DNA of 64,000 nucleotides from Candidatus Woesearchaeota archaeon (GTDB lineage: Archaea > Nanobdellota > Nanobdellia > Woesearchaeales > UBA11576): contig JABGYH010000007.1 in the NCBI GenBank assembly GCA_018675335.1, positions 308,232 to 372,231 of the forward strand. The letters run 5' to 3'. Every line of letters begins with the position of its first letter. The stretch's first letter is position 1. A program made the position numbers and the translations under genes. Shown one piece after another: positions 1,534 through 43,652 of the stretch. Under the pieces are notes generated by a model. That model worked only from the letters and a program-made list of their open reading frames with translations, was not told the origin of the DNA and did no database searches.

Positions 1534-2880
1534 TTAATTAGAATCGTGTTTAATAGGCATTGCATCTTCAGGAACACTCATCCCTTCAGAAGAAGAATCG
1601 TTTTTATTAGATTCGGATTTTTCAGTATTTTCTGACTCACTATTTTTTGACTCTTTTTTTTGAGAATCATTTTCGCCATCATTTTGATTCGAATTAGTTT
1701 GTGCAGGATCTTGTGCTAGTTCTTGTTCTGGACGTTCAGTTGCCTTAACACTTTCTCCCTCGATAAAATCTTCAAGTTCCGGATGAAGATTTCGATCCTC
1801 AAAAATATCATCTTTAACAACAACATCTTTTTTAACTGGTAAATCTTTATGAGTTTCTAGTAGTTGATCTGCAAGTTCTTTTGCGTGATCTGAATTATTT
1901 TTTTCTAAATCCTCTTCGAGTAATTTTGCTGATCCATCAACTTCAGAGTTAGACTTATCTGATTCGAAACCATTATTTGAGTTAGAATCAGCTTCATTTC
2001 CAGACGTAGATTCGCCCCCTGCTACTTCAACAGACTCAGCCTCTTGGTTTTCAGATTGTGAAGGAATAGGTACAACATCCAAATCTCCAATTTTTTCAGC
2101 AGGTTCTTGTGCTTTATTTTTGCCAGAATCATCATCAGAAATTATTTGTACTTTTTCTAAAGGAACTGCAGAGTCATATGTTTCAAGAGATCCAACTTTT
2201 TCACCCTCTACGTTATCTTTTTTTGTTGTGTCACCCAATTTATCTAGATTCGCATCTTGATTTTTGGTGTCAATTATTTTTTCTGGATCTTGTGGAAGTG
2301 CTAATTGAGCTTGAGATGAACCATCAAGTTTATTCTCGTAATCTTCCACTTTCTTTTGTGGAAGGACATTTTTTAAATCTGCAAAATCTTTGAATACTTC
2401 TTTAATTGCTTTTTTATGAGGTAGATCGAAATAATCCAAAAACTTTTGAGTGGTTTTGAGAAGATAAGATCTCCCTTGACGTTCTTTAGACAGAAATCCT
2501 TGCTCAACTAAATCTTTAATATGTTCATATGCTTTATTAGATCTAATATTTACTACTTCTGCTTGCAAAATTGGTTGTTTCCACGCAACAATTGCTAATG
2601 TTTCAAGAATTGCTTTAGACATTTCAGTGTGAGGATTAATACTATGAACAATTCCCAAATATTTTTCGCGAACTATTAATTTCCAACCATCTCCCTCTTC
2701 TATAAGACTTATAGGTGAATTTCGAGTTTTATAATCTGATTTGATGTCATTTACGGTTTCTTTTACTAATCCGTCTTCTTTAATGTCTAATAAAAGTTTA
2801 ATTTCAGTTAAAGTAATTACTCTACCACTAGAAAAAAGAATTGCTTCAATTTCATTTTTTAATTCTGAAAATTCAGCCAT
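1534..2880 (-). CDS. scpB: Segregation and condensation protein B (ScpB)-like, with a long acidic C-terminal tail
   Basis: N-terminus EIEAILFSSGRVITLTEI…; two winged-helix-like halves (…LAIVAWKQPILQAEVVNIRS…EQGFL), then a roughly 250-aa D/E/S/N-rich low-complexity tail. Confidence 0.65.
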   Translation of the reverse strand: MAEFSELKNEIEAILFSSGRVITLTEIKLLLDIKEDGLVKETVNDIKSDYKTRNSPISLIEEGDGWKLIVREKYLGIVHSINPHTEMSKAILETLAIVAWKQPILQAEVVNIRSNKAYEHIKDLVEQGFLSKERQGRSYLLKTTQKFLDYFDLPHKKAIKEVFKDFADLKNVLPQKKVEDYENKLDGSSQAQLALPQDPEKIIDTKNQDANLDKLGDTTKKDNVEGEKVGSLETYDSAVPLEKVQIISDDDSGKNKAQEPAEKIGDLDVVPIPSQSENQEAESVEVAGGESTSGNEADSNSNNGFESDKSNSEVDGSAKLLEEDLEKNNSDHAKELADQLLETHKDLPVKKDVVVKDDIFEDRNLHPELEDFIEGESVKATERPEQELAQDPAQTNSNQNDGENDSQKKESKNSESENTEKSESNKNDSSSEGMSVPEDAMPIKHDSN

Positions 2881-2940: not shown

Positions 2941-3012
2941 ATCCAATAATTGGTTATTTAAATCAATAATTGTTTATTTAAATCAATAATTGTTTATTTA
3001 AATCAATAATTC
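2941..3012. repeat. 20-bp tandem repeat (aatcaataattgtttattta) x ~3.5 in the scpB upstream intergenic region
   Basis: Direct reading: four consecutive 20-mers at 2941, 2961, 2981 and 3001 (first and last degenerate). Confidence 0.8.
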
Positions 3013-12587: not shown

Positions 12588-13118
12588 TTATGGTCGCATC
12601 CAACGAATTTCCCAGTAAGTAACATCAGTCTCAGCATCAACAACACCGATTAAAAGCCGTTTTTTAGTTGAGTTTGCAACACGATTTTTTGCAGAAAATT
12701 CATACCATGAAAAACTATCTGATTCTTTAACAGGATATACTAACCATTTGGCATGATCTTCACCAGGTTTCACACCACGATCGTAAACCCTAAAATCAGC
12801 ACCAAACTTAAGTGCAGTCTTAACAATATACCCTCTGTTTCTTAAATCCTTAAACACGCAGAATCTAGTCCAGAAATTATTTTCTTTTCTTAACGCTTTT
12901 TTAAGAAAATTCTGATCATCAAGTGGCTTATTACGAAGATCAGTAATGACAATACGTTTTTTTTGCATAAGATAATAAGCTTCAATAAGAGATAATTCTA
13001 CTCTGCTTTCAACAACAACCCCAAATCTACTTTGATTATAAAGTTCTCTTGCTATATCACTATCTTCAGTTAATACTCTTTCCTTAGCAAAAATTGCTTT
13101 AACAACTTGTTTTGGCAT
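12588..13118 (-). CDS. endA: tRNA-splicing endonuclease (EndA), short alpha4-type length (176 aa)
   Basis: Catalytic region FGADFRVYDRG…HAKWLVYPV…STKK matches the EndA Tyr/His/Lys core. Confidence 0.75.
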   Translation of the reverse strand: MPKQVVKAIFAKERVLTEDSDIARELYNQSRFGVVVESRVELSLIEAYYLMQKKRIVITDLRNKPLDDQNFLKKALRKENNFWTRFCVFKDLRNRGYIVKTALKFGADFRVYDRGVKPGEDHAKWLVYPVKESDSFSWYEFSAKNRVANSTKKRLLIGVVDAETDVTYWEIRWMRP

Positions 13119-13262
13119 TTTATATCAGATTGAGAGGGTTATTTATAAAGGTTTGGGGATTTAATAACTTTGTTTAAATAGGATTTATAAAGGAAAATAA
13201 TATAAATGGATAATGGAAATTAACTAATAATATATTCACTAAAATTGATTGTGCGTACGCCA

Positions 13263-13690
13263 ATTACAAACTCAATCGTACTCGATTATTAAAAAAAACT
13301 CAAAACAAAAATAAAATGCAACTAACATTTTTAGGCACCAACTGGTTACGCTCAGCTTGACACGCAACACCCAGTACGATTTCGCAAACTCAATCGTACT
13401 CGATTATTAAAAAAAACTCAAAACAAAAATAAAATGCAACTAACATTTTTGGGCACCAACTGGTTACGCTCAGCTTGACACGCAACATCCAGTACGATTT
13501 CATAAATTCAATCGTACGCAATTTTAAAAAAAAACTCAAAACAAAAACAAAATGCAACTAACATTTTTGGGCACCAACTGGTTACGCTCAGCTTGACACG
13601 CAACATCCAGTACGATTTCATAAACTCAATCGTACGCAATTTTAAAAAAAAACTCAAAACAAAAACAAAATGCAACTAACATTTTTAGGC
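13263..13690. repeat. 118-bp tandem repeat x ~3.6, each unit containing a TATA-like box and the first 27 nt of the RNase Z gene
   Basis: ATG of the repeated unit sits at 13316, 13434, 13552 and 13670 (period exactly 118). The first three copies continue caccaactggttacgctcagcTTGA (a 14-aa uORF). The fourth copy continues into the real rnz ORF. Confidence 0.9.
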
Positions 13691-14578
13691 ACTAGTGCCA
13701 TGGTTCCAACAAAGGAACGAAATGTATCAGGGATTTTTCTAGATTACAAAACAGAAGGAATACTATTTGATTGCGGAGAAGGAACGCAAAGACAGATGAA
13801 TATAACTGGAATAAAAAGATCAAAGGTTACAAAAATACTAATCAGCCATTGGCATGGAGATCACGTTTCAGGAATTATTGGCCTCATCCAAACAATGGGT
13901 TCAGATCAAGTAACTCACACAGTAAGAATATATGGCCCAACAGAAACTAAAAAAAGAGTTGAACATATGATGCAAACTTGCATATTTGATCAAAAAATAG
14001 AAATTGAAGTGATGGAACTTGAACCTGTGGGAACAGAAGTATTAAGATTTTTTGAAAACGAAAATTATGCACTAGAATGTGCTGCTCTTGATCATAAACT
14101 ACCTTGCATAGGATTTAATTTTATTCAAAAAGATCAGCTTAATGTGAGCATGGCAAAAATTAGCAAATTAGGACTGAGTGAAGGCCCATACTTAAGACAA
14201 ATTAAAGAAGGAAAAGATGTTACTGTAAACGGAATTAAAGTTCTTTGTAAAGATGTAACGTATCTTAAACCAGGAAAAAAAATAAGTTATGTTGCAGATA
14301 CTCAAACTTGCGAAGGTGCACTGAGACTCGCCGAAAATGCAGACATACTAATAAGTGAATGCGTTTATGCCTCATCAACACACCAAGAAAAAGCAGAACA
14401 ATACAAACACATGAGCGCAAAAGATGCAGCAATGCTTGCAAATCGGGCAGAAGCAAAAAAATTAATACTCACACACTTTTCTCAAAGATACAAAAACACA
14501 CAAGACATAGAAGAAGAAGCTAGCATGTACTTTGATAATGTAATTTGTGCAGAAGATTTTATGAAAATAAAAATTTAA
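13670..14578 (+). CDS. rnz: Ribonuclease Z (tRNA 3' endonuclease), metallo-beta-lactamase fold
   Basis: MQLTFLGTSAMVP…; HxHxDH (ISHWHGDHVSGI); C-terminal …LILTHFSQRY. Confidence 0.85.
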   Translation: MQLTFLGTSAMVPTKERNVSGIFLDYKTEGILFDCGEGTQRQMNITGIKRSKVTKILISHWHGDHVSGIIGLIQTMGSDQVTHTVRIYGPTETKKRVEHMMQTCIFDQKIEIEVMELEPVGTEVLRFFENENYALECAALDHKLPCIGFNFIQKDQLNVSMAKISKLGLSEGPYLRQIKEGKDVTVNGIKVLCKDVTYLKPGKKISYVADTQTCEGALRLAENADILISECVYASSTHQEKAEQYKHMSAKDAAMLANRAEAKKLILTHFSQRYKNTQDIEEEASMYFDNVICAEDFMKIKI

Positions 14579-17116: not shown

Positions 17117-17229
17117 AGCCCTTGGTGAGAGTTGAACTCACGACCTGCTGCTAACTCAAATAAACACATTTTACAAGTTCTGTGTTAGGATATACGAGGC
17201 AGCCGCTCCAGCCACTAAGCTACAAGGGC
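17117..17229 (-). tRNA. tRNA-Thr(CGU) with a ~40-nt canonical-position intron
   Basis: Reverse complement gives acceptor GCCCTTG/CAAGGGC; D-arm GCTT-AGTGGCTG-GAGC; anticodon stem GCTGC/GCAGC with loop CTCGTA|intron|A; variable loop AGGTC; T-arm GTGAG-TTCAACT-CTCAC. BHB 3' half: TGAG helix plus TTA bulge. Confidence 0.7.
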
Positions 17230-22083: not shown

Positions 22084-25000
22084 TTAGTTTACGTTAACAT
22101 TCTGTTCTACTTTTTCGAAAGAGGAAAACACATTCAAGTAGGATTCATCAAATAAATTAGATTCATTGTCAGATGCATTTATGAAAATACTATAAGTTCC
22201 ATTCTGACTAACCTCATCAAAACTAAGATTATAATCTCCCTCTATATCTGCATCACTAATCGCAGGTATAAAATCATCAGCTTCATATTGAGATAAAGAT
22301 CCATTAGGAAGAATAAATGTTAAATTAAATGAATCAATATTATTTTTAGACGATAATGTAAGTGCAACATCTATCCCGCTATCATTAAACGTCCAACCAG
22401 ACCCGAAGGAAATATTATCAATGAAAATAAAATCTTCTAGTGCATGGAAAGTTGCAATATCAGGATCACCATAAGTTCCTAAATTATCCACACAAGAAAT
22501 ATTTAATACCGTTTCTCCTTGAGATACATTAATTGTAGTATCATTCCCTAACGTGTTCAGATACGTTTTATTTACGACACCGTCAAGATAAATGGTACAG
22601 TTAGCAAGTTCATCCACTGTGAAATTTAAAGGAATTTCTAACGACTCATAAACTCCCCCATTAACAGGAGAATATAAATCAACTCCTGGAGTTGAAACAT
22701 TTAGTTGAACTACAACAGGCGTTGAATTTTTATAATTCAAACCATCAAATGCGCTTATTTTAATTCCGAAATAATCAACATTGTAACTTGAATTTATCCA
22801 CTGATACCAATTATTGGTTGTGTTGGCCACATTAGTAAATGAAGTAATATCTTGAGACGAATCAAATCCAAAATACACATGATACTCTAAAGATTCATTA
22901 TCTATATCTTCTGCAGCATCCCAAGTAATATTAATTGAGCCACCATATTCCTCCCCTGATGATGGATAAGTTATTACTGGCGCTATGTGAGGCATATCAT
23001 TAAATGCAGTAACATTTAAAGTTATATCTGGAGACCACTCTGAAACATTAATTAAATCGCCAGCCCTAAATGAAATTGTTGGCAAAATTTCATCCTCACT
23101 ATTAGAATAATTTGCAGGAGGAGTTATGTTAACAATTCCAGTAGAGTCATTAATTACAACAGTAAAATTACTATTAGATAAATTATATTCATAAGTTAAG
23201 TTATCCAAATCTACATCGAAAAATTCTTCAGATAAATTAATACTTATATTAGATACATCTTCAGTCAGAGACATATTATCAATTTGACCTCCAAAGTAAG
23301 GAGCATCATTAACAGGGATTATTGATATGTTAATCTGAGTTTCAAACCCAATTAAATAGCTATCAACAACATTAATAATTAAAGTAATGTTTTCAACATA
23401 ATCATTACCTAAAGTAATATTATATTCTCCAGTTGTGCTATTAATTAACTCAACAGTTAAAGTTTCATCTAATAACTCAATAGGATCTGGCACAACATCA
23501 TAAGTTAAATTATCACTTGTTGGATCAATATCTTCATCAGGATCAATAAAAAAATCATCTAACGTAATTGTACCAGACAAGTCTTCGAGTATACTAATAA
23601 TGCCTGCACCCATAAATATTGGAGGTGTGCTTTCAATAAAAATTGAACTAGGTAATTCAGTTGAATCATTATTACCATCAACTGCAACAACTGACCAATT
23701 TAAAGTTTTATTAATGAACTTGTGTAAATCAACAACCTCAAAAGTATAAATCCCACTATCTAAGTAATGTGTTGAATTCTGAGTTTCGTTAACACTAGAT
23801 ACTTTAGAAACAATCGTTCCATTAGGATACTCAAATGAAATATTTACTAAACTTAGCGTTTCATCAGTAATATTTACTGAAAGATAAATACTATCACTAG
23901 CAACCACTGTCGTTAAAATAGCATCACCTGAAACATTCATTGTTTGATTTTGTGCAATGATCGGACTTGAATGATCAATATAAACTTCCCTACTTTCAGG
24001 ATTGGTTTCAGCAGGACCCGCACCATTCTCACCATTTAATTGAATAACATATTCTCCTTCAGCCCAATCACCAACATAAATTAAATCAGTGTAATTATGA
24101 TCTTCTGCATACACAGTTTCTTGAGTTTCTTTAAATTTAATTAAACCTTGCGAATCATAAATAGTAAAAGAACTATTGATTGCATTTGTAACTTGAAACC
24201 CTGAATCAATATTAGTTTCGTTGTATATGTGCCCACTCTCAATAAAAGAGCTATTTGTATCATTAATCCCAAATATTAATTGCGGAGCTCTTTTATCAAC
24301 TGTAAAATTAATAAATGATTGATTAGTGTTATTGAATTCATCTTTTGCAGTCACAATAAAAGTTAAATTCGTTACATTATTTTCAATATCTGAAAAATCT
24401 AGTAAAATATCTCCATTGGAAGGTAAACTTCCAGTCATATTATCATAAGTTATATTTGTATTATTAGCATACTTAACTTGATATGTTCTCTCAGTAATTG
24501 CATTATTATCAGTAATTGTTGTTTGAAATTCCACTACTCCCGAAATAATATCATCCTGGTCAGGGAAAACAAATTCTACCGAGGGATTAGTTCTATCAAG
24601 TTCAAACTGTCTTGTAGTTGAGTAAACACAAGAATTGTTAGCAACAGCATTATCGCAAGCAACAACTCTCCAATAATAAGTTCCATCCTCAGAGTTTGAT
24701 GTATCAACTTCAAAAGTTTCAGCAGTAGCCCCAGTTGGTTCGCTGATAAAAATAGAAGTTGGAAGTTTCAAATCACGTTCATAAATCCAAATTTTAGATC
24801 CGTTAGTTGCAACTACAATATTATCACTAAATCCATAATCAGTAACTGAATCTGATTCGTCAATTAACTGATTGTTGTTTTGATTTATAAAAAAACCATC
24901 CAAACTGTTATTTATTGAATAATCTCCAAAATAACTATTTTCAAAATTTTCTTCAGGATACGAAATAAAACTATTATTATTTCCAAAATAAACTGCAGTT

Positions 25001-28000
25001 CCACCATTATTATCAGAATAACTGGATACAACTATTGGGAAAACTGACAAATTGTCGCCAGCATAATCCAGTTTCATAGATAACTTAGATTCTGAATCCG
25101 CTAAACTTAAGATTTCACCAGATTTATTAGACTGCAAATCATGCATCCAAACAGAGCTGCCATCACCCCAAATAAAAGACCCTCCTTTAACAGAAACTGC
25201 ATCAGCACCATAAACCCCATTTATCATAACTAATTCTAAGGAATCTAATTTAAAATTAAATATTCCTGAATCATTTACATAAATTAAATTATTCCCCTCA
25301 ACATCATAAGTGTTTGATTTAAAATCAGTTACTACCTCTGATCTTTTTGAAGTTGTTAAATCATAACTTAATAAATCCTTTTGCGCACCATTTGTTTTTT
25401 GATAATAAATTTTATTTTTGTAGATTTTAGGCATTGTTTCTGCAGATGTTGTTGTTGTTATTTGAGCAGTATTATTAGTCACAATATTTCTTGAAAAAAT
25501 GTTCCAATCACCCGACCTATTATCAGCCCAAACAATAATATCTCCAAAAACATCTGGATCTGCAATAGTTGCAACGGACGGCGTTAAAATTTCATATCTT
25601 GAAAAATTATTCAACTCATTATCCGAATAATTAAAACTAGTTTCATTATCAATTTCAATTGAGTAAATAAAATAATCATCATCAAGGTCACTTGTTAAAT
25701 TCCAAGATAAAATAATATCTGAATTAGTTTTAGTATTGTTTGAAACTCCAATTAATTCAGGAATTGCTGGAGCACTATTTGAAACTCTAACATAACCTGA
25801 CGAACTATTAGTTCTTTCTGTCTCATCAGCAATATTTACAGCACATGAAAGAGTTGAATCGCGAGTTATTGAATATTCTGATAAATTCAATTCAGCAGAA
25901 GTAAAATTTCCTGAAAGGAATAAATTTGTGGAATTCTCAAAGTTTACTCCGTCGTCAAACCACTGAAACAATGCCGAATCAACATTATTATCTTGATCCG
26001 TATAATTTGCAGAACAAAACGCAATTGAATCTGCATAAACAAATTCGCCGTCTGAATTATTAACAGTTACGTTAAATACTTGAGGGGCATCTGGCCAATT
26101 AATTATAAAATTAACATTAGTATTTTGAGTATGATCTTGAGCAACTCCCTGACTATCCCTACAAGAAATATACCAAGTAAAATTACCTTGACCACCAGTT
26201 GAAATTTCGCCACCAACATTAAACCTATTTACAGTCGTATTAGTACAAGAATAATTAGTTAAAGTAAAATTATCACATTCTTGAATATTTTCATTACTAC
26301 TATACCCAATATCAACATAAGTTAAAACACATTCACTAGCTTCTTCTGCATTGAAATTAATAGTAACATCTTTATCAGTTTCATTTACAAAAATCCAACC
26401 ATCGCCAGGATTTGAATCATCATTAATTTGATAAACTTCCGGTGCGGTTGGTGCAGAATTATCAATATAAATAATACCATTTGAATAAGTTGAAGCATTA
26501 GGATTATTAAAACCATTATAGGGAGTTATTTTAAAGTAATATTTAATTTGATTATCTAAACTAAGTCCACTAACTGAAACTTCAGAATTAGTAACATTAC
26601 CACTTGCACCACTTACTGCCGGACAACTATTAGGAATATCTCCACCACACTGATCATCCTCAGGATTGTACTGCAAAATTTCCCAAGCATAATGATCTAT
26701 ACCCGTTTCAGGATCAGAACTTGGAGTCCAACTAGCATGCAAATATGAACTATCAAAAGTTTGGAAACCTTGATCAGTAACAGATGAAATTAAAGTAGGC
26801 CCAGTTAAGTCAGATTTCATAACTTTTTGTATTGCCCCCGAATCATATACTTTTAAGTTACCTGCACCATCATAAACATGAAGTTTGAACGCATGACACT
26901 TACCAGAAATTAAATTCACATCTTCAATTGATTCGGCAAGACCATTACTAGGAGTAAGATAATGAATCAAATTAAAATCATAAATTGGAGGGCAAGTATT
27001 ATTAAGACCTACAGGTAATGAAGACGTTCCCATCCACAAAGAAACATTTTTGATTCCTGCAACCGAATTACTGGGCGTATCTAAACCATTATCTAAACCA
27101 GATCCATTATCCCCCCCCGAATTATAAAAAATATCCACGCTTTCAATATCATAATCGCCTCCCACATAAGAAATCGCACCACCAACTGGCTCTGTGAAAT
27201 CAGTAGTTATTCCTGCAGATGAAAAAAACTCAGACCAACCACTACTATAGTTAGAAAAACTATTTCCACTTTTTGCTCTAACATTAAAATAATATTTTAC
27301 TCCTTCTTCCAAAATTAAATTTGAAACTAAAACTGAGGTTTGACTTGTTTGCGTGAGCGGATGAACTGAATCAAAGCTTGCTTCCCATTCATTAGTTCCA
27401 GTTCCGATTGAATACTCATACCCAATAATTTCAGACTCTGCATCAGTAAAATTCCATGAAGCATTTAAGGATGATTGTGAATTTGCCCAAGCAGATGCGC
27501 CTTGTGACACGCAATTCCCCTCACAAGCAGGAGCACTATCATCAATATACAAAATACCATCACTAGAAACTGGCGCACTTGTAGCTCCAGCCAAATTAAC
27601 TGCCCTAACATTAAAATAATAAACTTCATTAGTTAAAAAAGTAAAATTATAAGCTGATTCTATTTCTGAACCCGTATGAGTTATGTTAATTTCTTTAGTT
27701 TGTTTTGATATATTAACCCAATTTAATTTATCAACAAGACTTGGATCTTTACCAACTGAAACTTGATAATAATCTAAATCAGTATCTTCACTCCCACTAG
27801 CTAAAGTCCAATTAGCCCAAATCCAATTTTTACTAGTCACATCCCAATTATTATAGTCTCTAACCCAACCAATACTGACATTAGTTAGTATAACATTAAT
27901 TTCAGTCACATTAATTTTTTCAGTACCAATATAATCCGATACATTAAACTTAACATTATTTGTTCCATTAAATAAAACCAAAGTAACATTACATGAATAA

Positions 28001-31000
28001 TATGAAGTATTGATTTCAGAACACAAAATATTATCTTCAAATTCAGACATATTTAATCCCAAAGAATCATTAACTGATTCAGGACTAACTGCATGAATAC
28101 TAAAGTTATCATCTTTTGACGCATTAATCCACAATGAAGAAATATTTACTTCATTATTATCAGATACGTTAAACTCAATAAAAGTTTCAGTTGATGCAGA
28201 AACATTTGAAATTTCACCCAAATAAAAAACAGGAGCGTCACCTGCATCATAATAAACGTATTGTGAAATTGATTTGTATCCTTCAGTTTCGTTTTTAACT
28301 CCCACTGCATAAATTTCATTAGTTTGATTGGCAGTTAAATTTCCAGAAATATTAATTGATACATTAAAAAATCCATGCCTCCACTCTGCGCTATGAATTA
28401 CCATATCCGCAGACGTTGTTACCGAACTTTCTAATGTAGGATCGAGTATTATTCTAGGATCTTCTCCAGGATTATCTTCTATTTCAGTTACATTATATCT
28501 TTGCCAATAAGTTCTATCATGATTTGAAAACTCAACCCAATAATTTGCCCACGCAGATTCGCTAATATCTAATGAGTCATATTCTGCTTGAGAAACAAAA
28601 ACATAAGATGCACCTTCTGCATGATTTGAACTAATGTTTAATACACCTAATTGATTTGAAGTATTATTTACATCTTGAGATAATAATGATACTTCATTAT
28701 CCTCATCTTTGATTACAACAGTAATATTTAAATGGGTTAAGCTTTCTTCGTCAATATACCCAATAACATTAAAATCTTCATTTTCTACACTAGGCAAATC
28801 CCACAATTTAGGAATTGCTTCAACAGGACCTGTTGGATGATTAATAAAATCATCAGTAGCACTACCAGAATTTCCTTTCTTATCCGTACCCCAAACAGAG
28901 ATTCTATTAACGCCACCATACAAAGAAACATTAGCTTGGAAATGTCCTGAAGGATACTCTGTCGAATACAAAGTAACTTGTGTTCCCACAGGAATAATTG
29001 ATTCTAAATTATCTGTAAAATTAACTCTAATATCATTACCCGTTCTATTAGCCTGATCAATTGCATATCTTTGGAAATAAGTCTTATCATGATTTGAAAA
29101 TGTAACATAATCATATGTCAAAAATGCGTCTTCACGCTCAGCAGTCCATTCAACCAACACAACATTTTGACCTTCTTCAGCATGATAATTTAAGGTAATA
29201 CTTTCACCTTCATATGTTGAATAAATTTCTGAATTTGTTTGAGTATCAACACTAAACTCATAATTTTCATCCTCATCAACTCTTAAAATAACAATTGTTG
29301 ATTCAATATCAGACTCATCATAATAACCCGCAACAACTGTTGTAGAATTATCAGATTGATTTGTTGGATGCAACCAAATTTGTTTATACAAAATAGGTGC
29401 AATAGGTGCAGTTACATCATCAACAAGAGTAAACGTCGAAGATAACGATTGATTCTCAAATTTATTTGAAGTACAATTAATATTATAATTATACACTCCT
29501 GGAGCAGTAAAATTTGTAACAGAATTATTAAATTTGTAAACTCCAAAATTTGAATCATAAATCATAGGCGTATTTGAAATTTTAGATAATCCATTCCAAG
29601 ATTGAGAAATTGAAATTGTACAACTACCATTATTAGTTGATGCAAAATCATCTCCTCCTGTTTGATCATTTATTGATTGTCCTGAAAGATCATTACCTTG
29701 ATCAGTTATGAAAAACTTAGTATAGTTTGCATAAAACCAAATACGATGATAAGTTTCTAAAGTACCATTTTCAGTATAAGTATTAATTTTACTATTATTA
29801 GTAGTTGAATAATTTGAAAATGAATTAACTTGAGTTGAAAAAATTCCATTCGTGTAATTTCTTGAACTGCTCGGACAAATTGAGTTATTACATAAAACTC
29901 CATTCCTAAGTAAAGCAGGAATTTGTTCGTAGGAAAGATTTGTTAAATTTAATTGAACTTGTTTGTTTGCTAAGTTGTATAACAAAACAGAATCCACACT
30001 AATTGAATTTTGTTCAATTGTAGCATAATTAAGATTCATTTTTTTAAAATTAATTGTTTCAAGGAATTCAATTGAACCGTAAGTGTTTTCCAATAAAACA
30101 TTTTCTGCAGAGTCTAATTCATCAATCAACGTAAAATTATAAGTATACTCTGCTTGATTAAATCCTTCCCCACAATCAGGTTCATCCCAACCAATATCCC
30201 CATCACAATCCCAATCAATAAGTCTATCTGCAAGATCAGTACAATGATCAACAGAAGAGTTTGAATGATTTAATGCGCCCGGATTTACCGCAGGATTATT
30301 ATCATTACAATCTTGAGGAATAAAATAAGAATCGTTATCATAATCAGTTGCCTTACTTACATTAAAAAAATCACTCTGATTAGTAAAACCAATAACTCCA
30401 TATGCTAACGGAGTAACATTATAATAAAACGACGTATTTTGCGGATCACCATAAGTAATTTGGTTATACGGAGTCCACTCAAAATAATTATTTACTTCAG
30501 TATCTGTTAAAGTAACCGAACCATAAAAAGTACCTTCAACACCAGTATCATTTTTGTAAAGATCAACCTGATACGTAATTGCATCAAAATTACCAACAGA
30601 ATTCCAAGTTAAATTAACAACATCCTCACTAGTTTCAAACGCAGCATCAATTGGAGGAGACGTTTTCAAACCACATTCAGTATCAGGAATAGTTGCACCT
30701 GCCGGATGAAAATTACCTGTGTTGTTTTGGCAAAAAGTGTTGTTTGTTAAATAGTCTTCACCAATTCCTTTCAAAAATAAATTGTTTGAAACTAAATTTC
30801 CCTCATTATTCTCAATAAATGCAAGATCATTTCCTGAACTATTAAAATAATTATTATAAATAATATTAGAACTGGATACTACACCAATTCCCGAAATAGT
30901 CGAGTTTATGAATGAATTATTTTCAATTAAACTCAAATTTGAATCAAGATAAATACCATATGATGAACCAGATATTGAATTATTAATAATTGAAATATTA

Positions 31001-32832
31001 ACTGAGGGTTCATCAGTAAATACACCCATGTCAAAGTTACCCATAATTAAACAATTAGTAATAACTGAATTATTCACATATTGATCAATTTCAATTCCTC
31101 TGTCAGTAATTCCTTGAATAGCAAAACCTGCGCAATCAAGAGCTACATTATTAGCATTGATGTTAAGACCATTTGTGGAACAACTAGTAATATTATCAAC
31201 CAAATAAGTATGTTCAACAGTCAAATCAGAATTACAAAATGTAGAAGTACCATCACCAATCCAAGCATAACCACAATCAAAAGATGCAGGGAAATTTTTA
31301 GCAGTTAATGTGTAATTATTACCAACACCGTTGATACAGAAGTTGTTGTTGCCATTATCTAAAATGCCATTTCCATAAAAAATATTATTGGAAAAATTAT
31401 TATATTCTCCAGAATTAAGGTCTAAATCATATTTAGAGTTTCCAGCATTAATAAAAACATTATTTATGAAACTATTATTATTTCCCCCTTGCAAATAAAC
31501 TCCCGATCCAGTTGTGCTATTAATAGTATTATTTTCAAATAAACCATATTCTCCAACTTGTTGTATGCCATAAATAACATTGTTTAAATTGGTGTTAAAT
31601 ACTCTTAAGTAATCTGCATTATTTGAAGCGCCAATACCATATGAAAAATTATTAATTATACAATTATTTATGGTGATATTGGAATGAGGATTGTTAAATA
31701 AATCTACTCCAAAATTAAACTGGGTTCCATCACCGAGAATAAGATGGTCGTCACAATCTAAATTAAGATTATCCTCCCCAATGTTGAGTCCATTACCAGA
31801 ACAAGTAGATTCTCCAGTAGCTCGAGTTAAATTTTCAGTTAAAATTAAGTTGCCAATAACAGTTACGCCACAAACAGGAGGCAAAGTTTCTGGAGAATAT
31901 GCTTCAGTCAAATTACTACAAGGATAGGCATCCATTTCTACTCCTTCTACGTAATAGTTACCATAATAGTTTGATGAAGTTGTAAATCTTCCCGCAGTAA
32001 GTTCTGAAGTTACAGGCCCACAATAATAACTAGTTCCTGCAGATACATCATTAACATTACCACTTAGAAAAGTATTTAGCCAAAATTGGTTATTTGTCGA
32101 CGATCCAGTCACATTAATGTTAGTTTCCATATCTGAAAAAGTATTTCCTACAAAATTATTGGAGTCCGCATTTGAAAGCGAAACGTCAACCTTACCATTT
32201 TCTTCATTATCCAAAATATTAAATGAAAAATTGTTATTATCCGCACTAGTATCAAAAACTACTGCATGATCTTTAGTAGTATTACAATCATATATAGAAT
32301 TGTTAAAAAATAAATTATAATCTCCTTGTATATGTATGCATGAATCCGTAGAATCATGGAAGGTATTGTTCGTAAAATTTGAATATCTCACATTATCAAA
32401 CAAAATTACATTAATCACAAACCCTGAAATATCGCAATTTCTAATTGTAGTATAATTCCACTGATAACCAACATTAAAAATATTAATGCCATAATCCTGA
32501 TCATACAAAGCATAATCGCCACTAATTTCAAATCCACCACAATCCAAAGTTACATTGTTTGCACCTATATAGAATCCATTACCCGTACAGGCTAAGCCCT
32601 CATCTAAAGTATAAACTCCATTTTCAGTTGCTAAAGTATCACCACAGGCAAGAGTTTGCCCAGGTGTTTTGACTGCCATCCCAGTTATTGTTGGATCGCC
32701 TGGAAGGATTATTGCTGCTGCTATTAAAGAACCAATCAAAGCTATTACTGCCACTACTGAAAGTAGTTCTGCATTCTTGTTTGATCTCATAAAACCTCTT
32801 TTCTCTTTTTGTTCTTTAGTAGTCAGGTTCAT
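22084..32832 (-). CDS. Giant (3582 aa) cell-surface protein built largely from right-handed parallel beta-helix repeats, extremely rich in N-x-S/T sequons; N-terminal TM/signal anchor
   Basis: Single uninterrupted 10.7-kb ORF. N-terminal hydrophobic anchor LLSVVAVIALIGSLIAAAIIL. Repeated N-N-x-F/I-x-x-N motifs (e.g. NNSFINNVFINAGNSKYDLDLNSGEYNNFSNNIFYGNG). Cys/Asp-rich motif DWDCDGDIGWDEPDCGE. Well over a hundred N-glycosylation sequons by eye. Confidence 0.8.
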   Translation of the reverse strand: MNLTTKEQKEKRGFMRSNKNAELLSVVAVIALIGSLIAAAIILPGDPTITGMAVKTPGQTLACGDTLATENGVYTLDEGLACTGNGFYIGANNVTLDCGGFEISGDYALYDQDYGINIFNVGYQWNYTTIRNCDISGFVINVILFDNVRYSNFTNNTFHDSTDSCIHIQGDYNLFFNNSIYDCNTTKDHAVVFDTSADNNNFSFNILDNEENGKVDVSLSNADSNNFVGNTFSDMETNINVTGSSTNNQFWLNTFLSGNVNDVSAGTSYYCGPVTSELTAGRFTTSSNYYGNYYVEGVEMDAYPCSNLTEAYSPETLPPVCGVTVIGNLILTENLTRATGESTCSGNGLNIGEDNLNLDCDDHLILGDGTQFNFGVDLFNNPHSNITINNCIINNFSYGIGASNNADYLRVFNTNLNNVIYGIQQVGEYGLFENNTINSTTGSGVYLQGGNNNSFINNVFINAGNSKYDLDLNSGEYNNFSNNIFYGNGILDNGNNNFCINGVGNNYTLTAKNFPASFDCGYAWIGDGTSTFCNSDLTVEHTYLVDNITSCSTNGLNINANNVALDCAGFAIQGITDRGIEIDQYVNNSVITNCLIMGNFDMGVFTDEPSVNISIINNSISGSSYGIYLDSNLSLIENNSFINSTISGIGVVSSSNIIYNNYFNSSGNDLAFIENNEGNLVSNNLFLKGIGEDYLTNNTFCQNNTGNFHPAGATIPDTECGLKTSPPIDAAFETSEDVVNLTWNSVGNFDAITYQVDLYKNDTGVEGTFYGSVTLTDTEVNNYFEWTPYNQITYGDPQNTSFYYNVTPLAYGVIGFTNQSDFFNVSKATDYDNDSYFIPQDCNDNNPAVNPGALNHSNSSVDHCTDLADRLIDWDCDGDIGWDEPDCGEGFNQAEYTYNFTLIDELDSAENVLLENTYGSIEFLETINFKKMNLNYATIEQNSISVDSVLLYNLANKQVQLNLTNLSYEQIPALLRNGVLCNNSICPSSSRNYTNGIFSTQVNSFSNYSTTNNSKINTYTENGTLETYHRIWFYANYTKFFITDQGNDLSGQSINDQTGGDDFASTNNGSCTISISQSWNGLSKISNTPMIYDSNFGVYKFNNSVTNFTAPGVYNYNINCTSNKFENQSLSSTFTLVDDVTAPIAPILYKQIWLHPTNQSDNSTTVVAGYYDESDIESTIVILRVDEDENYEFSVDTQTNSEIYSTYEGESITLNYHAEEGQNVVLVEWTAEREDAFLTYDYVTFSNHDKTYFQRYAIDQANRTGNDIRVNFTDNLESIIPVGTQVTLYSTEYPSGHFQANVSLYGGVNRISVWGTDKKGNSGSATDDFINHPTGPVEAIPKLWDLPSVENEDFNVIGYIDEESLTHLNITVVIKDEDNEVSLLSQDVNNTSNQLGVLNISSNHAEGASYVFVSQAEYDSLDISESAWANYWVEFSNHDRTYWQRYNVTEIEDNPGEDPRIILDPTLESSVTTSADMVIHSAEWRHGFFNVSINISGNLTANQTNEIYAVGVKNETEGYKSISQYVYYDAGDAPVFYLGEISNVSASTETFIEFNVSDNNEVNISSLWINASKDDNFSIHAVSPESVNDSLGLNMSEFEDNILCSEINTSYYSCNVTLVLFNGTNNVKFNVSDYIGTEKINVTEINVILTNVSIGWVRDYNNWDVTSKNWIWANWTLASGSEDTDLDYYQVSVGKDPSLVDKLNWVNISKQTKEINITHTGSEIESAYNFTFLTNEVYYFNVRAVNLAGATSAPVSSDGILYIDDSAPACEGNCVSQGASAWANSQSSLNASWNFTDAESEIIGYEYSIGTGTNEWEASFDSVHPLTQTSQTSVLVSNLILEEGVKYYFNVRAKSGNSFSNYSSGWSEFFSSAGITTDFTEPVGGAISYVGGDYDIESVDIFYNSGGDNGSGLDNGLDTPSNSVAGIKNVSLWMGTSSLPVGLNNTCPPIYDFNLIHYLTPSNGLAESIEDVNLISGKCHAFKLHVYDGAGNLKVYDSGAIQKVMKSDLTGPTLISSVTDQGFQTFDSSYLHASWTPSSDPETGIDHYAWEILQYNPEDDQCGGDIPNSCPAVSGASGNVTNSEVSVSGLSLDNQIKYYFKITPYNGFNNPNASTYSNGIIYIDNSAPTAPEVYQINDDSNPGDGWIFVNETDKDVTINFNAEEASECVLTYVDIGYSSNENIQECDNFTLTNYSCTNTTVNRFNVGGEISTGGQGNFTWYISCRDSQGVAQDHTQNTNVNFIINWPDAPQVFNVTVNNSDGEFVYADSIAFCSANYTDQDNNVDSALFQWFDDGVNFENSTNLFLSGNFTSAELNLSEYSITRDSTLSCAVNIADETERTNSSSGYVRVSNSAPAIPELIGVSNNTKTNSDIILSWNLTSDLDDDYFIYSIEIDNETSFNYSDNELNNFSRYEILTPSVATIADPDVFGDIIVWADNRSGDWNIFSRNIVTNNTAQITTTTSAETMPKIYKNKIYYQKTNGAQKDLLSYDLTTSKRSEVVTDFKSNTYDVEGNNLIYVNDSGIFNFKLDSLELVMINGVYGADAVSVKGGSFIWGDGSSVWMHDLQSNKSGEILSLADSESKLSMKLDYAGDNLSVFPIVVSSYSDNNGGTAVYFGNNNSFISYPEENFENSYFGDYSINNSLDGFFINQNNNQLIDESDSVTDYGFSDNIVVATNGSKIWIYERDLKLPTSIFISEPTGATAETFEVDTSNSEDGTYYWRVVACDNAVANNSCVYSTTRQFELDRTNPSVEFVFPDQDDIISGVVEFQTTITDNNAITERTYQVKYANNTNITYDNMTGSLPSNGDILLDFSDIENNVTNLTFIVTAKDEFNNTNQSFINFTVDKRAPQLIFGINDTNSSFIESGHIYNETNIDSGFQVTNAINSSFTIYDSQGLIKFKETQETVYAEDHNYTDLIYVGDWAEGEYVIQLNGENGAGPAETNPESREVYIDHSSPIIAQNQTMNVSGDAILTTVVASDSIYLSVNITDETLSLVNISFEYPNGTIVSKVSSVNETQNSTHYLDSGIYTFEVVDLHKFINKTLNWSVVAVDGNNDSTELPSSIFIESTPPIFMGAGIISILEDLSGTITLDDFFIDPDEDIDPTSDNLTYDVVPDPIELLDETLTVELINSTTGEYNITLGNDYVENITLIINVVDSYLIGFETQINISIIPVNDAPYFGGQIDNMSLTEDVSNISINLSEEFFDVDLDNLTYEYNLSNSNFTVVINDSTGIVNITPPANYSNSEDEILPTISFRAGDLINVSEWSPDITLNVTAFNDMPHIAPVITYPSSGEEYGGSINITWDAAEDIDNESLEYHVYFGFDSSQDITSFTNVANTTNNWYQWINSSYNVDYFGIKISAFDGLNYKNSTPVVVQLNVSTPGVDLYSPVNGGVYESLEIPLNFTVDELANCTIYLDGVVNKTYLNTLGNDTTINVSQGETVLNISCVDNLGTYGDPDIATFHALEDFIFIDNISFGSGWTFNDSGIDVALTLSSKNNIDSFNLTFILPNGSLSQYEADDFIPAISDADIEGDYNLSFDEVSQNGTYSIFINASDNESNLFDESYLNVFSSFEKVEQNVNVN

Positions 32833-35930: not shown

Positions 35931-35958
35931 ATAAAAAATAAAACACTATTTCTTGAAA

Positions 35959-36020
35959 TTAAATGTTATTTATGCTAAATTAAATATTATTTATGCTAAA
36001 TTAAATATTATTTATACTAT
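35959..36020. repeat. 21-bp tandem repeat (ttaaatattatttatgctaaa) x ~3
   Basis: Direct reading at 35959, 35980 and 36001. Confidence 0.75.
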
Positions 36021-43527: not shown

Positions 43528-43652
43528 GGTGGAGTCGCCAAGCCCGGTAAGGCGTTCGGCTGCAATAATTGGGATGATGAGCAACCAAAAATCATGGTTG
43601 TAATGATCTAGCAGATCCCGATCATTCGAGGGTTCAAATCCCTCCTCCACCT
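43528..43652 (+). tRNA. tRNA-Cys(GCA) with ~51-nt canonical-position intron
   Basis: Acceptor GGTGGAG/CTCCACC with discriminator U; D-arm GCC-AAGCCCGGTAA-GGC; anticodon arm TTCGG-CTGCAA|intron|C-CCGAT; T-arm GAGGG-TTCAAAT-CCCTC. BHB 3' half: GCAG helix plus ATC bulge. Confidence 0.6.

Follow-up and report, generated by a model that had tools for sequence, protein, structure and literature searches.

The endA–rnz spacer and its 118-bp repeat units

In a marine archaeon of the Woesearchaeota (DPANN) that has not been cultured, the gene rnz for the tRNA-trimming enzyme RNase Z is preceded by a tandem array made of copies of its own promoter region and start codon. The array lies in a stretch of 64,000 nucleotides of contig JABGYH010000007.1 (GC content ~31%), hereafter the window, which belongs to ENA contig k141_91901 (556 kb, sample ERZ27237606). 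The rnz gene (13670–14578, plus strand) encodes a protein of 302 aa that is recognized by Pfam (Lactamase_B_2, Lactamase_B and Lactamase_B_4) as a tRNase Z with metallo-beta-lactamase fold. It is oriented divergently from endA (12588–13118, minus strand), the gene for the tRNA-splicing endonuclease (Pfam tRNA_int_endo and tRNA_int_endo_N), and the same synteny is found in the sister species (L082, represented by nine contigs), whose rnz product shares 72% aa identity. The spacer between endA and rnz comprises 551 nt and harbors the array.

Tandem Repeats Finder reports 3.6 copies of a 118-bp unit at 13266–13692 on the plus strand (period 118, 95% matches, 0 indels, score 735). A 118-bp piece consisting of the rnz promoter and the first 23 bases of the gene is present three extra times in head-to-tail orientation, and the duplicated segment spans a GC-richer upstream element, a palindrome, a TATA-like box and the beginning of the rnz open reading frame (ORF) up to nucleotide 23. 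We designate the units u1 (13266–13383), u2 (13384–13501), u3 (13502–13619) and u4 (13620–13692, from where the sequence continues into rnz). Each unit is made up of a 73-nt part followed by a 45-nt part, such that the array as a whole reads 73-[45-73]x3. The 73-nt part (26% GC) carries the right arm of the palindrome, an A/T box 30 nt before the ATG, the ATG itself and eight rnz codons, while the 45-nt part (49% GC) contains the stop of a mini-ORF, a weak hairpin and the left palindrome arm. The original prediction had described a perfect array of this period. The period is indeed exactly 118 and indels are lacking, and all four ATG-containing units are found where they had been seen (13316, 13434, 13552 and 13670), but the repeats are not perfect, as is evident from the 95% matches and from the two to nine positions at which units differ. 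Nor do the copies extend over the first 27 nt of the RNase Z gene; identity ends after 23 nt, with three mismatches in the next four positions, and at the protein level the upstream copies have 8 codons in common with rnz.

The differences between units are not evenly spread. Three sites distinguish u1 from u2, eight u2 from u3 and nine u1 from u3, while u3 and u4 differ at 2 of the 73 comparable sites. The variants form two pairs, u1/u2 and u3/u4, that are separated by six fixed differences, four of which fall within the stretch of the B recognition element (BRE) and the TATA box. The only new joint is GGCAC/CAACTGG at 13338/13339 together with its repeats. A chance origin can be excluded, the 45-nt part having been matched in 0 of 100 shuffles, and the constant period combined with an identity far above chance marks the structure as a tandem array of the duplication type.

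The true start of rnz is the ATG of u4, from which the N-terminus MQLTFLGT common to the relatives is read. RNase Z is annotated from Met11 (292 aa; L096, 1541–2419) both by NCBI (MBT7903378.1) and by the Joint Genome Institute (JGI), which affects window positions 13670–13699. The public annotation is probably 10 residues short, since the 302-aa form is the one that opens with the relative-conserved MQLTFLGT, and the case may serve as a warning for gene callers.

The name of the ENA contig implies a short-read assembly with k=141 and one other contig breaks within the array, which could mean that the repeat was expanded or collapsed during metagenome assembly. This worry, already voiced when the array was first described, is largely removed. 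The longest exact repeat within the array measures 76 nt and every k-mer of at least 79 nt is unique; the k=141 graph is therefore unambiguous in this region. All four units can be told apart and, because each 141-mer covers more than one period, the joints between differing unit variants must exist in the reads. A search with the neighbouring EndA protein furthermore led to a second contig, SI34jun09_200mDRAFT_c1000001 (JGI 3300000172, 462 kb) from Saanich Inlet. It stems from another assembler and a different pipeline, but matches the window at 100% identity over 631 nt of spacer, all four units and their variants included, and there are 0 differences to the window locus across 6.5 kb. A third JGI contig, 3300072015 (322 kb; endA at 450–980), ends 449 nt from the endA start, corresponding to window position 13567. 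This end falls inside the 76-nt exact repeat, as expected for the point at which an assembler using shorter k would stop; here we have the same population in a third sample with the array not assembled across. Taken together, an assembly artefact is scarcely credible.

The palindrome, its upstream element and the history of the array

The palindrome (A)GTACGATT-N10-AATCGTAC(G) is located at 13609–13636, directly upstream of the TATA-like box of u4, and recurs at 13373–13400 and 13491–13518; a pattern search gave 0 occurrences expected by chance. Perfect 9-bp arms at the unit junctions, as originally proposed, are present at one of the three: AGTACGATT-N10-AATCGTACT occurs at the u1/u2 junction (13373–13400) only, and the arms at u2/u3 and at u3/u4, GTACGATT and AATCGTAC, measure 8 bp. 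In the first unit, the right arm (13274–13282) is without a partner. GC-containing 8-bp palindromes are otherwise rare, with two others in 64 kb, and within the same 64 kb we found no second site for this palindrome save one 8-mer inside a coding region.

The adjoining 45-nt element, CAACTGGTTACGCTCAGCTTGACACGCAACATCCAGTACGATTTC, lies on the plus strand at 13575–13619 with copies at 13339–13383 and 13457–13501. It is richer in GC than the window (49% versus 31%) and combines the weak hairpin GTTACGC-N10-ACGCAAC with the left palindrome arm. In the window it is confined to the three array copies, and no match was obtained in viral contigs, in JGI metagenome contigs in more than 80 related loci or in 80 GTDB relatives. 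A second metagenome scan, with a gene-internal pattern, yielded no match either, as that collection has no contigs of this organism. The best Rfam scores over positions 13100–13720 were 10–15 bits compared with thresholds of 65–95, with nothing at gathering or relaxed thresholds.

The element is, however, recognizable in one related lineage. A short ENA contig, L091 (1,047 nt, ERZ24794647), encodes an RNase Z that is 76% identical to that of the window. Its first bases, ATACGCAACATCCAGTACGATTTCGCATCTAATGATGCTCAATCGTACGCTATAATGATAAAAC, precede its rnz ATG by about 100 nt; the contig ends in the element and holds nothing further upstream. The last 22 nt of the 45-nt element, ACGCAACATCCAGTACGATTTC, and the 12 nt TCAATCGTACGC are identical in L091 (22/22 and 12/12 around the palindrome), and the local alignment between L091 and the units scores 56 versus a maximum of 25 in 300 shuffles. 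Between the element and the ATG, similarity to the units is gone. Both palindrome arms are kept upstream of rnz in L091, with a loop of 18 nt versus 10 nt in the window. The extra loop bases pair with each other (GCATC-TAAT-GATGC), and the L091 sequence folds with a z of -3.9. Judged from these sequences, the longer, self-complementary loop would fit a hairpin better than a dimer site with fixed spacing. The 45-nt part and the palindrome are to be regarded as resident sequence, that is, as the conserved ancestral upstream region of a small clade and not as foreign DNA, because the two are contiguous upstream of an rnz whose product is only 76% identical. The earlier statement that the three upstream copies diverge from the real gene after the shared bases needs to be replaced accordingly, as what follows there is this conserved ancestral element.

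The same finding speaks against a quite different origin, in which the array would be the integration scar of a mobile element that entered at the 5' end of rnz and brought along its own promoter and first 23 nt to restore the gene, with the 45 nt as its remnant. The 73-[45-73]x3 structure does resemble direct repeats around an insert, the 45 nt exceed the genome in GC content and the junction bears a palindrome. Yet, L091 has the 45-nt part directly joined to palindrome and promoter, no counterpart turned up in viral or JGI metagenome contigs, an integrase is absent among 30 neighbouring ORFs and the exact 118-bp period would need later amplification regardless. We therefore consider an integration scar highly improbable.

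Some further readings of these sequences were tried and dropped. The 45 nt were compared by eye with a frameshifted RNase Z N-terminus (..TRNI..), a similarity for which blastn against the relatives gave no support. A dif/Xer-like 11-6-11 palindrome was abandoned on account of the eight extra central bases in L091, and readings as C/D box or as tRNA-like structure (T-arm, bulge-helix-bulge) were rejected by eye since the box or loop consensus is lacking.

None of the 80 GTDB relatives carries a tandem repeat upstream of rnz. In the sister species, the spacer of 313 nt is identical in all nine contigs and has neither an array nor a match to the palindrome; the array is thus lineage-specific. 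Two distant relatives, L094 and L002 (rnz 64% aa identity in both cases), have endA–rnz spacers of only ~80–93 nt (~93 nt in L094 and ~80 nt in L002). Two back-to-back TATA boxes are recognizable in L094, and both boxes are kept in the window genome and in the sister species, where extra sequence stands between the second box and rnz, bringing the total spacer to 313 nt in the sister species and 551 nt in the window genome. In the window, the boxes are two copies of ATTTATAAAGG 42 nt apart. The first (13141–13151) is the TATA box of endA and the second (13183–13193, plus strand), a direct repeat of the first, aligns with the L094 rnz promoter. An older rnz promoter, missed in the original prediction, seems to survive here upstream of the array, ~480 nt upstream of rnz.

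The spacer of the sister species (L082, 3810–3965) contains, at the equivalent place, five perfect hairpins of its own and folds with a z of -4.3. Three of the hairpins share a C-TAT-G centre with differing stems (CAAATTC-TAT-GAATTTG, CGAGC-TAT-GCTCG and TTGAACTC-TAT-GAGTTCAA), and the last of these abuts the TATA box. Hairpins are not a general trait of the region upstream of rnz: stems of at least 8 bp occur in 7 loci of the relatives versus 2 in shuffles. Against shuffles, neither the likeness (GCTCAG..TGACA) between the sister spacer and the 45-nt element nor a candidate decayed repeat of the same species reached significance.

Taken together, the array is probably a genuine, lineage-specific tandem amplification of a promoter-proximal module of rnz. 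Slippage or recombination had been proposed as its source, and the restriction to one lineage and the two-pair pattern of unit variants support this well. The pairing argues for at least two rounds of duplication, by unequal recombination or replication slippage: the 118-bp module would have been duplicated, the two copies would have diverged at about six sites, and each would then have been duplicated again, leaving 2–3 differences within each pair. The leftmost copy may afterwards have lost its 45-nt part when a deletion or rearrangement struck the left edge within the loop of the palindrome. Comparison with L091 suggests as ancestral states a G at unit position 17 (retained in u3/u4), GC at positions 1–2 (u2) and T at position 105 (u2/u3). 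These states are scattered over the units, so that every unit would have changed since the duplications.

Promoters, mini-ORFs and neighbouring features

Since an unconstrained position weight matrix of the TATA box was reduced to a run of A, TATA-like hexamers were counted instead. Among 46 genes of the window they peak at positions -35 to -26 from the start codon, with 23 matches in those two bins as opposed to 2–8 per bin further upstream (-90 to -41). A peak at 26–35 nt corresponds to the geometry predicted for leaderless or near-leaderless transcripts. The box of u4, TTTTAAAAAAAAA (13640–13652, plus strand), starts 30 nt before the rnz ATG and is identical to that of u3 (13522–13534). Both contain TTTTAA/TTTAAA at -30/-29, and these are the only two units with strict hexamers. 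The deviant A/T box of u1, TTATTAAAAAAAA (13286–13298, plus strand), is shared by u2 (13404–13416); it contains TTATTA and misses the strict motif. An A/T-rich box ~30 nt before each ATG is consequently present in all four units, just as had been claimed, but the hexamer typical of this genome is not found in u1 and u2, and the leaderless-type spacing of archaeal TBP/TFB promoters is seen in u3 and u4, with u1/u2 deviating. On these grounds, the promoter part of the unit is plausible as far as the sequence goes.

Of the four ATGs, that of u4 alone leads into the RNase Z frame. The remaining three begin dead-end ORFs of 14 codons at 13316–13360, 13434–13478 and 13552–13596 (all plus strand), the first 8 codons being copied from rnz, and translation of all three gives the peptide MQLTFLGTNWLRSA followed by a stop, as first noted. 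With an ATG and an in-frame stop ahead of the main ORF, they would act as upstream ORFs if, as we presume, they are transcribed together with rnz. Neither peptide nor position is conserved in the relatives, since the sister species has no upstream ORF and a 12-codon ORF in L091 is unrelated. This latter ORF (L091 94–132, ATGCAACAGGAG...AAATGA) has a stop that overlaps the rnz start (ATGA), with GGAG 9 nt before that start, and looks like a translationally coupled upstream ORF. Between the units, there is no oligo-T longer than T5, which lies inside the copied codons, and a scan for bacterial-type terminators found no match.

On the opposite strand, each unit could in theory give rise to a small RNA that starts near the palindrome, folds into a hairpin (GUUGCGU-N10-GCGUAAC), carries 23 nt antisense to the rnz start and ends in a long T-run, the complement of the A-rich box. 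The inner hairpin is fully paired on the minus strand only, with two G-U pairs, TTTTGTTTTTGTTTTGAGTTTTTTTTT on that strand would be a good archaeal oligo-T terminator signal, and a TTTTTAAAAT box is situated upstream. The minus-strand unit, however, folds no better than shuffles (z of -0.8 and -0.3), Rfam offers no match, minus-strand TATA scores are low, and an A/T-rich promoter is expected, by symmetry, to show such boxes and T-runs on its other strand. Such an RNA is very unlikely.

The amplification outlined above would have left four promoter-like/start-codon modules 118 bp apart and downstream of the older TATA box at 13183. Unit u4 has the promoter geometry that is standard in this genome and no Shine-Dalgarno sequence, and it would most likely drive a leaderless rnz mRNA. 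Transcripts from the distal units, should these fire, would start at the AUG of a 14-codon dead-end ORF and read through the next modules. The rnz AUG would then be internal and without a Shine-Dalgarno sequence, and therefore the upstream copies would add little enzyme. The distal copies may also occlude or interfere with the proximal promoter, and with the older box at 13183 the leader could become longer still. Degradation of the TATA box in the distal pair u1/u2 would be expected if the copies drift. All in all, we take the array to be most likely a tolerated feature, or one with a mild effect on dosage, and not a dedicated device.

Several points weigh against this reading. Under a plain duplication model the 45-nt part should come first in the array, but the 73-nt part does, and the resemblance of the left flank to a unit does not reach significance against shuffles; therefore, an extra event has to be assumed. 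The units have diverged by 2–8% and yet show zero indels, even in their A8/A9 runs, and in every one of them ATG and stop are preserved in an intact frame, together with the palindrome arms. This preservation hints at constraint rather than pure neutrality, though, given 10 variable sites, the hint falls short of significance. The two assemblies, identical as they are, represent one clonal population, hence they confirm the sequence and are uninformative on copy-number variation. Finally, the promoter activity of every unit is predicted.

Preservation of this kind is what one would expect of a regulatory device under selection, in which the units would multiply a conserved palindromic operator or hairpin just ahead of BRE/TATA, and with it the binding sites for some factor, or stack promoters and decoy leaderless mini-ORFs, and thereby set RNase Z relative to EndA. 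The exact spacing was maintained along with ATG, frame, stop and arms despite the divergence of the units; L091 has the palindrome and the 22 nt next to it in identical form in spite of diverged coding sequences, and in both organisms they stand just upstream of the TATA-like box; and the scarcity of comparable GC-containing palindromes in the 64 kb points in the same direction. Multiple active and differently regulated promoters are, moreover, established for archaeal rRNA operons (PMC4983044). Against this, the arms are spaced differently in the two species (10 versus 18 nt), which is hard to square with a fixed site for a dimeric DNA-binding protein, the sister species and the other relatives do without the element, the canonical TATA hexamer was lost in the distal units, a second site in the 64 kb is limited to the 8-mer in a coding region, and the 10 variable sites are too few to test constraint. 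We regard a selected device as unlikely. Somewhat more doubtful still is its most elaborate form, in which selection in a reduced DPANN genome would have kept four hairpin or operator copies and four leaderless starts, the distal ones being decoys (through dead-end mini-ORFs and promoter occlusion) or sources of RNA complementary to the rnz start, so as to set the level of RNase Z against that of the splicing endonuclease.

Among the neighbours of the locus are genes for RNase J, FEN1, Hjc, ABCE1, Trm5, a GCD14/Trm61-type tRNA methyltransferase, topoisomerase VI and further housekeeping functions. No gene for an integrase, transposase or other mobile-element protein was detected among the 30 ORFs scanned. 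The possibility of a replication origin with an iteron array was discarded, given that the cumulative GC skew is monotonic across the window and that Orc1/Cdc6 is absent among the scanned ORFs; the consensus of the origin recognition box was not formally tested. ARAGORN found no tRNA in the window, and Rfam detected two tRNA genes and no other structured RNA. These two, missed by ARAGORN, measure 113 nt (17117–17229, minus strand) and 125 nt (43528–43652, plus strand) and presumably contain introns; one of these long tRNA genes is ~4 kb from the splicing endonuclease gene. A single ORF at 22084–32832 (minus strand) encodes 3,582 aa. A second tandem repeat in a promoter region consists of 3.4 copies of the 20-nt unit CAATAATTGTTTATTTAAAT (97% matches, 2944–3011) and is located 64–131 nt upstream of a ScpB-like gene (1534–2880, minus strand), on whose strand the units read TTTAAATA, a TATA-like box. 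A 21-nt unit, AAATTAAATATTATTTATGCT, is present three times in tandem (95% matches, 35956–36019) within the extremely A/T-rich 3' region that separates two convergent genes.

Comparison with known systems

Our literature search on tandem promoter duplications in archaea returned only general reviews. Serial promoters as such are well documented: archaeal rRNA operons have up to five, of unequal strength (PMC4983044), and up to five promoters in a row are reported for H. cutirubrum's rRNA operon (PMC4983044, citing Dennis 1985). In Haloferax volcanii, three transcription start sites (TSSs) lie 185, 293 and 444 nt upstream of the 16S gene, and 111 genes have both leaderless and leadered transcripts, the leaderless TSSs showing on average about three-fold higher read coverage (PMC4983044). 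Stacked promoters are therefore not exotic in archaea. As in the haloarchaeal rRNA operons, the promoters in our array would follow each other at intervals of ~110–150 bp before one gene, and distal transcripts would read through the proximal promoters. The haloarchaeal promoters, however, were mapped experimentally and serve an RNA operon, whereas those of the array are predicted from sequence and precede a protein gene; moreover, the repeat described here includes the start codon, such that each distal copy opens a dead-end mini-ORF.

The array also bears resemblance to upstream ORFs and leader peptides, as its 14-codon ORFs would precede the main ORF on any transcript from a distal unit, and the 12-codon ORF of L091 is placed similarly. 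Unlike leader peptides, the mini-ORFs are by-products of copying the first 8 codons of rnz. There is no sign of sensing, of a conserved peptide, of an attenuator or of coupling, and 73 nt separate each stop from the next ATG.

Palindromes that adjoin the BRE/TATA region are well known as activating or operator sites in archaea, e.g. those of TrmB-, Lrp- and Ptr2-type regulators. The rnz palindrome resembles them in that it is centred ~48 nt before the start, abuts the TATA-like box and is kept in a related species. It differs from them in an arm spacing that varies by 8 nt between species and in the self-complementarity of the longer loop.

In promoter minisatellites, or variable number tandem repeats, copy number can in principle tune expression. 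With these, the array has in common that a regulatory segment was copied head-to-tail by slippage or unequal recombination. In contrast to such contingency loci, no copy-number polymorphism was seen between the two assemblies, which stem from one clonal population, and divergence of the units by 2–8% speaks for an old, stable array rather than a hypervariable one.

Should the upstream copies fire, the locus would constitute a natural experiment in leaderless expression, with promoter and start codon four times in series and the last alone productive, set in an organism whose very small genome has little DNA to spare. The interplay of promoter stacking, read-through and 5'-end-dependent initiation in archaea could then become visible here, and the palindromic element common to one related lineage would be a candidate regulator site for tRNA-processing genes. 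Should the copies be silent, the array would only illustrate, in well-preserved form, the remodelling of a promoter by tandem duplication. In either case, the underlying mutation is of an ordinary kind, and the locus is a further example of tandem duplication of a promoter region giving serial promoters, with the added curiosity that the start codon was copied too.

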